In this document: positions 18,293 through 18,459 of the stretch, piece by piece
Position numbering within the stretch: position 1 is the stretch's first letter
How the letters are laid out: each line of letters begins with the position of its first letter
NCBI GenBank assembly: GCA_041640035.1
Contig: JBEQBC010000003.1
Location: 1 to 64,000, forward strand
Length of the DNA: 64,000 bases
Direction of reading: 5' to 3'
From: Candidatus Nanohaloarchaea archaeon
GTDB taxonomy: Archaea > Nanohalarchaeota > Nanosalinia > Nanosalinales > Nanosalinaceae
Program-made: the position numbers and the translations under genes
The notes under the pieces: model-generated
Seen by the model: the letters and a program-made list of their open reading frames with translations, nothing else
Told to the model about the DNA's origin: nothing
Database searches by the model: none

Positions 18293-18459
18293 GGGAAAGT
18301 AGCTCAGGGGTTAGAGCGCTGCGCTCATAACAATTCAGTTTGTATGAGCGATGAGGAAGCCGGTGATTCTGGATAGCTGGTTTCCGATGATTAAATGTAC
18401 TCTCCAGAAAAGATTTGTGAGAAACGCAGAGGTCCCGGGTTCGATTCCCGGCTTTCCCA
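18293..18459 (+). tRNA. tRNA(CAU), probably elongator tRNA-Met, with a 94-nt intron at 37/38 (18330-18423)
   Basis: Acceptor GGGAAAG/CTTTCCC-A; anticodon stem CTGCG/CGCAG; CAT at 18326-18328; canonical BHB (helix CTCA/TGAG, bulges TAA and AAA). Ile2 identity is not excluded. Confidence 0.92.
18330..18423 (+). ncRNA. Putative intron-encoded box C/D-type guide RNA for tRNA C34
   Basis: Antisense TATGAGCG (18343-50), D'-like ATGA (18351-54), 10-bp hairpin, C'-like ATGATTA (18387-93). Confidence 0.7.

Follow-up and report, generated by a model that had tools for sequence, protein, structure and literature searches.

The elongator tRNA-Met gene in a 64,000-nt stretch of Candidatus Nanohaloarchaea archaeon DNA (contig JBEQBC010000003.1 of assembly GCA_041640035.1, called the window here) contains an intron which carries, next to a kink-turn (K-turn), a short complement of the anticodon loop of its own tRNA. 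We read this intron as a natural single-K-turn, self-targeting guide for 2'-O-methylation of the wobble base C34 (Cm34). The methylation is predicted from comparative sequence evidence, and we put the probability of this reading at about 0.7. The occurrence of the methylation, its action in cis and its timing before splicing are inferred. A preliminary description of the window had proposed such a guide and named computational tests that could refute it; all of them were run, and none refuted the idea.

The tRNA gene occupies positions 18293-18459 on the plus strand, and scores 56.3 bits against the Rfam tRNA model. With introns allowed, ARAGORN assigned it the anticodon CAU and a 94-nt intron (18330-18423) at the canonical site between positions 37 and 38; without the intron option, the program missed the gene. 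The 5' exon (18293-18329) comprises tRNA positions 1-37, with C34 at 18326, and the 3' exon (18424-18459) comprises positions 38-73. The acceptor end has a G1-C72 pair.

Within the intron, TATGAGCG (18343-18350) is the exact reverse complement of CGCTCATA (18322-18329), which represents tRNA positions 30-37. Chance would place an exact 8-mer complement in a 94-nt intron in about one case in 750 (87/65536), and the 8-mer itself occurs 6 times on the two strands of the 64-kb window, compared with 1.2 expected from shuffles. In this genus the guide is extendable through 18340-18342: TTG at these positions pairs with CAA (18331-18333), leaving A18330 bulged, and the minimum-energy fold draws the duplex in this way. 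A D'-like box, ATGA (18351-18354), stands directly after the guide. Counted upstream from this box, the guide runs from N+8 to N+1 and pairs with tRNA positions 37 to 30, so that C34 is paired with G18346, at the fifth position upstream of ATGA (N+5), in keeping with the N+5 rule. The box is followed by a 10-bp hairpin (18355-18385), in which GGAAGCCGGT (18355-18364) pairs with GCTGGTTTCC (18376-18385) around a loop at 18365-18375 with three G.U pairs among the ten, and then by a C'-like element, GATGATTA (18386-18393). Every feature listed in the preliminary description was found in the sequence as described. The anticodon arm and intron folded together with a z score of -3.74, and 0 of 200 shuffles folded as well.

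A K-turn consists of a Watson-Crick stem, a 3-nt bulge and tandem sheared G.A pairs, with a G-C pair next to the bulge. AUGA, the 10-bp hairpin and GAUGAUUA can together be read as such a structure, with AUGA as the non-bulged strand and the hairpin as the canonical stem. On one strand GA stands before the stem; on the other, the C'-type box supplies a GAU bulge and the sheared GA after the stem, and then UUA (AUGAUUA). Beyond the GA come a U.U pair and an A-U pair, as U18392 can pair with A18351 in place of the usual G-C. The K-turn pattern noted earlier therefore has the consensus features at the level of sequence. Among the Rfam models only tRNA reached its gathering score, and C/D families stayed at 11.8 and 8.4 bits, where their gathering scores are 37 and 45. 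A weak alignment to sR33 would make GCGAUGA a box C; we rejected this candidate, since other families of the order carry the canonical CTGA at the first box, which is therefore D-type and not part of a C box.

We then analyzed whether relatives keep the guide and the K-turn. A DNA search of 60 related genomes and the genome itself gave matches in 55 of 61, and 30 loci were taken. ARAGORN found an intron-bearing tRNA-Met in 28 of the 30 loci; contig ends cut the remaining 2. All 28 introns hold, in this order, T[AG]TGAG[CT]N (the guide), [AC]TGA, a hairpin and NATGAT[TC]N. The introns are 65-262 nt long, and the closing stem of the hairpin has 2-10 bp in hairpins which share no common sequence. 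In further loci from other families of the order, the module was found in 12 of 14, with tRNA-Met intron lengths of 42-292 nt overall; one of the other two loci was unparsed and one is described below. The internal D'/C' pair, readable as a K-turn or K-loop (NUGA, hairpin, NAUGAUNA), was present in the same 28/28 and 12/14 introns. The guide and K-turn are thus conserved in relatives, a point on which the idea could have failed. The MAFFT alignment lost register in the intron tails, and the pair counts were therefore scripted.

A pattern scan of 185,579 species' genomes returned 46 stretches, and 36 of them are archaeal tRNA-Met introns (27 called by ARAGORN and 9 in archaeal tRNA-Met genes recognized by eye). 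The remaining 10 come from bacterial-labelled records, have no tRNA context and were read as chance matches. The record titles name Nanohaloarchaea and metagenome-assembled genomes (MAGs) labelled Aenigmatarchaeota and Nanoarchaeota, which agrees with a probable spread of the tRNA-Met design beyond Nanohaloarchaea. Two contigs from bins labelled Colwellia polaris (L113) and Magasanikbacteria (L129) carry typical nanohaloarchaeal tRNA-Met introns, and are therefore probably mis-binned. The shortest tRNA-Met introns, of 40 nt (L139, from a MAG labelled Aenigmatarchaeota) and 42 nt (L150, in genome G037), retain CTGA and a C'-type box together with the guide. The long hairpin is replaced by a short loop in L139, where the splice-site motif looks relaxed.

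The same module was found in two other tRNAs of the organism. The tRNA-Trp(CCA) gene (C1:252267-252404; L034:101-238) has a 64-nt intron with CTGGAGG-A-ATGA, a hairpin and GATGATTA, aimed at C34 and with no guide for position 39. ARAGORN called this gene Arg(CCT), and its anticodon loop CTCCAGA is that of tRNA-Trp. The tRNA-Lys(UUU) intron (C1:79720-79870; L035:101-251) has TTAAAAGC-A-CTGA, a hairpin and GATGACGA, with U34 at N+5. Of the distinct introns in relatives, 18 of 19 from tRNA-Trp and 13 of 23 from tRNA-Lys(UUU) had the module. One further case of each was recognized by eye: the 19th Trp intron has a GTGATTA variant, and a 14th Lys intron was added, these extra cases having a variant box or a very long insert. 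ARAGORN called 25 other introns in the collected loci (Val-GAC, Ser-GGA, Ile-GAU, Lys-CUU and others), and no in-register module was found in them except in one mis-called tRNA-Met. As a separate observation, the tRNA-Met intron (18330-18393) and the tRNA-Trp intron (L034:138-190) of the organism both start with ACAATT, and their hairpin strands are alike (GAAGCCGGT/GCTGGTTTC and GAACCGGT/ACTGGTTC, respectively), which suggests a possible common origin or gene conversion.

A register test was made over 59 introns of tRNA-Met, tRNA-Trp and tRNA-Lys(UUU) together. When guide bases N+2 to N+8 were set against tRNA positions 31-37, 411 of the 413 cells held standard pairs, compared with 118-212 of 413 when the register was slid by 1-3, and all seven bases were paired in the 28 tRNA-Met relatives. 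The pair between N+5 and position 34 was Watson-Crick in 59/59 (C-G in Met and Trp, U-A in Lys), so that all three tRNAs share the N+5 geometry. When guides were matched to the wrong tRNA, 3.2-6.0 of 7 pairs formed, versus 6.9-7.0 of 7 with the right tRNA. In the K-turn stem, the pair next to the bulge was G-C in 51 and G.U in 8 of the 59 introns, and the following pairs showed 5-6 standard types (6 at the second pair).

Covariation of guide and target had been named as a check. Five of the seven positions (31, 34, 35, 36 and 37) have pair types that vary from one of these tRNAs to another, and the guide changes with its host. Within tRNA-Met no covariation was found: the target CTGCGCTCATA is invariant in all 28 genes, and the guide changes are A to G only, yielding G.U pairs. 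The case for guide-target covariation therefore rests on the comparison of the three tRNA species.

The guide occupies bases which splicing also needs. A canonical bulge-helix-bulge (BHB) splice motif, starting at the anticodon stem, can be drawn from the sequence: a 3-nt bulge AAA (18422-18424), a 4-bp central helix of C32-A35 with TGAG (18418-18421), a second 3-nt bulge (18328-18330), and a helix of 18331-18336 with 18412-18417 containing one U.U. The 3' strand of the motif, which was also modelled in constrained folds, spans 18412-18424, includes the 3' splice site, and competes with the guide for tRNA positions 32-37. Because both conformers use the same anticodon-loop bases, guide pairing and the splicing fold are mutually exclusive, as had been proposed, and the predicted energies are consistent with this. 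In constrained folds, the guide conformer was favored over the BHB conformer in 28/28 tRNA-Met precursors, by 0.6-15.6 kcal/mol (mean, 5.9). The minimum-energy fold paired C34 with the guide G in 26 of the 28. For Trp precursors it paired position 34 with N+5 in 14 of 18, and for Lys precursors in 12 of 13.

We propose the following order of events. As the precursor is made, the 7-9 nt guide directly upstream of the single K-turn would pair with positions 31-37 of the anticodon loop just transcribed, placing C34 at N+5. The K-turn would recruit L7Ae, Nop5 would dock, and fibrillarin would 2'-O-methylate C34. The RNA would then refold into the BHB and be spliced. Refolding must come before the splicing endonuclease cuts, since the same loop bases build the BHB with the 3' end of the intron; methylation followed by splicing is the order that we infer. 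In the family, only 5-13 nt separate the target from the guide, and the duplex is therefore expected to form as a hairpin within the nascent precursor, which is the predicted default fold. The short tether and the short duplex are our reasons for placing the action in cis. Since the initiator-like tRNA and the elongator do not differ at positions 31-38, only the tether could make the guide elongator-specific.

The main alternative, which we consider unlikely although it is the strongest of those weighed, is that the same guide acts only in trans. An excised intron, linear or circular, or another precursor would then methylate a second pre-tRNA-Met or the spliced tRNA. Such action is reported for Haloferax pre-tRNA-Trp (PMC11408192), and the Nanoarchaeum tRNA-Met intron is described as accumulating as a stable RNA (PMC3491384). 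The seven core pairs (positions 31-37) are wholly exonic, and N+9 is T in 21 of the 28 introns and could also pair with A38 of the spliced tRNA. However, the intramolecular hairpin across the 5-13 nt tether is the minimum-energy fold in 26/28, and a free guide could not distinguish the initiator-like tRNA. Archaeal guide duplexes are about 10 bp, and a duplex of 7-9 bp is short for a guide in trans.

Self-targeted methylation would require the protein machinery, and the lack of fibrillarin or Nop5 had been named as a finding that would speak against the guide. The genome encodes fibrillarin (229.8 bits), a Nop domain protein (166.3 bits) and L7Ae (94.2 bits), and the nop5 and fib genes overlap by 4 nt. 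The Nop5 protein has 250 amino acids (G000:C5:1542-2291, minus strand; L002:1474-2226). The short length is a family trait: the best 120 database relatives have 150-274 amino acids, all but one having at least 245. Open frames for Nop5 are mostly 248-287 amino acids in the family and 314-362 in other families of the order, which retain a short N-terminal extension. Searches with the N-termini of relatives for a separate gene encoding the N-terminal domain found one weak acidic match (E 0.0035) and nothing else. The Pfam model NOP5NT was uninformative, being below cut-off in all archaeal controls. A model of the Nop5-fibrillarin complex scored 0.78, versus 0.00 for the best control, a mark that 58 of 80 solved complexes and 2 of 110 mismatched pairs attained. 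At least 97% of contacts agreed between runs, the partner pLDDT (predicted local distance difference test) was at least 92, and Nop5 residues 1-21 were placed on fibrillarin. Since solved Nop5-fibrillarin complexes exist, this pass may reflect likeness to them.

In a second alternative there is no methylation, and the K-turn and the anticodon complement serve a structural or regulatory purpose. The intron would be bound by L7Ae, and its complement would cover the anticodon loop like a mask, so as to time or check splicing or to stabilize the intron. The competition of the guide fold with the BHB in all 28 precursors is compatible with such a role, as is a Nop5 lacking the usual fibrillarin-binding domain, and abstracts in the literature describe L7Ae binding to K-turns in several unrelated RNAs. 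A plain mask, however, needs no fixed distance from the K-turn, whereas the register is exact in 411/413 cells with position 34 Watson-Crick at N+5 in three tRNAs. The Met, Trp and Lys hosts are tRNAs whose position 34 is a known or plausible site of ribose methylation (as Cm34 in Met and Trp), and fibrillarin is kept, with its gene overlapping nop5. A purely structural element is for these reasons an improbable explanation, more so than action in trans.

Several points nevertheless weigh against the self-targeting guide. One comes from the protein: Nop5 aligns only to residues 127-375 (coiled coil and C-terminal domain) of the 388-amino-acid Sulfolobus Nop5, so that its N-terminal, fibrillarin-holding domain is missing, and it is this domain that is described as binding fibrillarin (PMC6239191). 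In the RNA, terminal C and D boxes are absent, and the guide duplex is short, 7-9 bp, with N+1 paired in only 18, N+9 in 40 and N+10 in 35 of the 59 introns. The invariance of CTGCGCTCATA leaves no guide-target covariation inside tRNA-Met. The module is also not universal: locus L158 (G050:C1) has a bare 16-nt tRNA-Met intron with neither guide nor K-turn, and 9 of the 23 distinct Lys(UUU) introns lack the module, which indicates that it is dispensable in some lineages. Some relatives have no Lys(UUU) intron. The nearest-neighbor energies behind the folds take no account of proteins, high salt or the tertiary structure of the tRNA.

Caution about a one-armed guide comes mainly from engineered RNAs, since a single-site (hemi) box C/D ribonucleoprotein (RNP) was reported as active and had lost site specificity (Hardin and Batey 2006, PMC1635284). 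Archaeal box C/D guides have two K-turns by definition. Earlier single-site constructs are reported there as not viable, and both K-turn motifs are stated to be necessary for function or site specificity (PMC1635284, PMC8413462). The engineered RNP resembles the intron in having one K-turn and one guide, as its description gives them. It differs in being artificial and acting in trans, while the natural RNA is tethered to its target.

The CAU anticodon by itself fails to separate tRNA-Met from tRNA-Ile2, and the tRNA could in principle be an AUA-reading tRNA-Ile2 with C34 converted to agmatidine, the complement then being unrelated to ribose methylation. Two CAU tRNAs were found in the genome: the one at 18293-18459, with G1-C72, and an initiator-like one with A1-U72 and three G-C pairs in the anticodon stem. 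A separate tRNA-Ile(UAU) gene is present. The TiaS_FLD model had no match in the 89%-complete genome at E values up to 1, whereas it matched 4 archaeal controls. Since an initiator-like CAU tRNA and tRNA-Ile(UAU) are present and no TiaS domain was matched, the tRNA(CAU) at 18293-18459 is the elongator tRNA-Met. The possibility of Ile2, which had been raised earlier as a reason to drop the idea, is very improbable. AUA seems to be read by the UAU anticodon, given the tRNA-Ile(UAU) gene and the lack of a TiaS match, a mode of reading known in a few other small archaea. The tRNA-Ile(UAU) gene itself (G000:C1:231893-232022; L036) has a 54-nt intron without the K-turn module.

Chance complementarity next to chance GA motifs is the least probable explanation: short motifs are common, and a loose box-hairpin-box regular expression matches 36 sites in the genome, but the comparative data, in which the module is kept in 40 of 42 parsed tRNA-Met introns of relatives with unrelated hairpin sequences and the guide is re-aimed in Trp and Lys introns, already refute it.

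The preliminary description had left two forms of the guide, one-armed or completed by circularization of the intron. The one-armed form stood. In the 28 decomposed tRNA-Met introns, no conserved terminal C (RUGAUGA) or D (CUGA) box was found outside the internal pair, and introns of 40 nt (L139), 42 nt (L150) and 65 nt (L013, L149) leave no room for such boxes. Completion of a second K-turn in a circular intron was rejected, because the candidate motifs (GUGAGAA and CAGA-like) are absent from the short tRNA-Met introns of relatives (40-65 nt) and from all Trp introns. No second guide, for position 39, was seen in tRNA-Met or Trp introns, and the region after the C' box showed neither conservation nor a complement to the 3' exon. 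The introns of four loci of family f3 (L031, L033, L155 and L156) have further conserved elements in common: a 5' hairpin, a CTGAGA placed 12-14 nt downstream of the C' box, and CCAACAAAC close to the 3' end.

CAGA at 18405 had been taken for a degenerate box D. We rejected this assignment, as CAGA belongs to TCCAGAA (18403-18409, plus strand), the tail strand of a helix with TTCTGGA (18367-18373, plus strand) in the hairpin loop. Both strands are kept in nine related introns (L004-L009, L011, L016 and L018), and they exchange places in L010. Per-sequence shuffles were not significant alone, with 2 to 166 of 500 reaching the observed length in the ten carriers, and the case for the loop-tail helix is made by its conservation and the one strand swap. 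The helix would form a pseudoknot over the K-turn hairpin.

One canonical two-K-turn C/D small RNA (sRNA) was found in the genome (G000:C4:45220-45285, plus strand). Its layout is ATGATGA, 13 nt, CTGA, a hairpin, ATGATGA, 15 nt and CTGA, and it also has a hairpin between D' and C'. The assembly yielded no target for this sRNA.

The closest precedent is the 66-nt intron of the Nanoarchaeum equitans elongator tRNA-Met, in which a stable RNA was described that has C/D features and a GC hairpin (Randau 2012, PMC3491384). The preliminary description had mentioned this precedent, and it is real. The published description matches the nanohaloarchaeal case in that the host is elongator tRNA-Met of a DPANN organism and the intron holds a stable hairpin and two boxes, one of the C type and one of the D type. 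That description names no target or N+5 geometry, whereas the nanohaloarchaeal case shows its own C34 as the target, conservation across the order, and sister modules in Trp and Lys.

In euryarchaea, the pre-tRNA-Trp intron (Haloferax volcanii; Pyrococcus sR50) encodes a box C/D guide (Clouet d'Orval 2001, as cited in PMC7994747 and PMC11408192), which is described as guiding Cm34 and Um39 (PMC11408192). As reported, this guide also lies inside the 37/38 intron of its own target, selects C34 by the D' guide, and uses L7Ae, Nop5 and fibrillarin. It differs in having the two sets of boxes and a second guide, for U39; the nanohaloarchaeal module has a single K-turn and a single guide, with nothing for position 39 even in the tRNA-Trp intron of the organism. 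In haloarchaea, Cm34 of tRNA-Met is attributed to the C/D guide sR-tMet (Joardar 2011, in PMC4033218). The modification, the elongator tRNA-Met and the salt-loving archaeal host are the same as those predicted here, but sR-tMet is described as a separate trans-acting gene, whereas the present guide lies inside its target. The human guides SNORD97 and SCARNA97, which direct Cm34 of elongator tRNA-Met (Vitali and Kiss 2019, PMC6601510), are described as two stand-alone eukaryotic guides with full box sets. The single-K-turn, self-targeting intron guide thus differs from the two-K-turn archaeal guides, and it is of a known kind, with its precedent in the Nanoarchaeum tRNA-Met intron. Literature searches found no paper on a guide in a tRNA-Lys intron or on nanohaloarchaeal intron guides.

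The tRNA-Met gene sits between open reading frames, about 1 kb downstream of tRNA-Val(GAC), and this neighborhood is kept in most relatives. The genome assembly is 978 kb in 24 contigs, 89% complete, with 45% G+C. The encoded proteins are very acidic.

Cm34 is thought to stop C34:A pairing, i.e., the misreading of AUA or UGA (PMC7668247). This fits the Met and Trp hosts, and by extension it may fit a wobble methylation in Lys(UUU). Intron-borne wobble guides would then extend from tRNA-Trp to tRNA-Met and tRNA-Lys(UUU).

If the self-targeting guide is real, one arm would suffice when the substrate is held in cis, and the intron would offer a natural minimal system in which to study how the site of methylation is measured out. 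An ordered pathway of folding, methylation, refolding and splicing would become testable. There would also be a reason to keep tRNA introns in very small genomes, since the intron is the guide, in a one-to-one ratio with its substrate. A broader proposal, which we regard as tentative and rather doubtful, is that Nanohaloarchaea, and probably many DPANN archaea, have a minimal guide-methylation enzyme, and this proposal has three parts. A single K-turn and a single guide, tied in cis to the target, would serve a Nop5 that has lost the fibrillarin-holding domain. The default guide fold might be a built-in methylation checkpoint, passed before the RNA refolds into the splicing substrate, and the Met, Trp and Lys-UUU introns might form a wobble-fidelity set for codon boxes in which misreading of the third base changes the meaning. 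If true, such a set would explain the survival of three introns in 1-Mb genomes.

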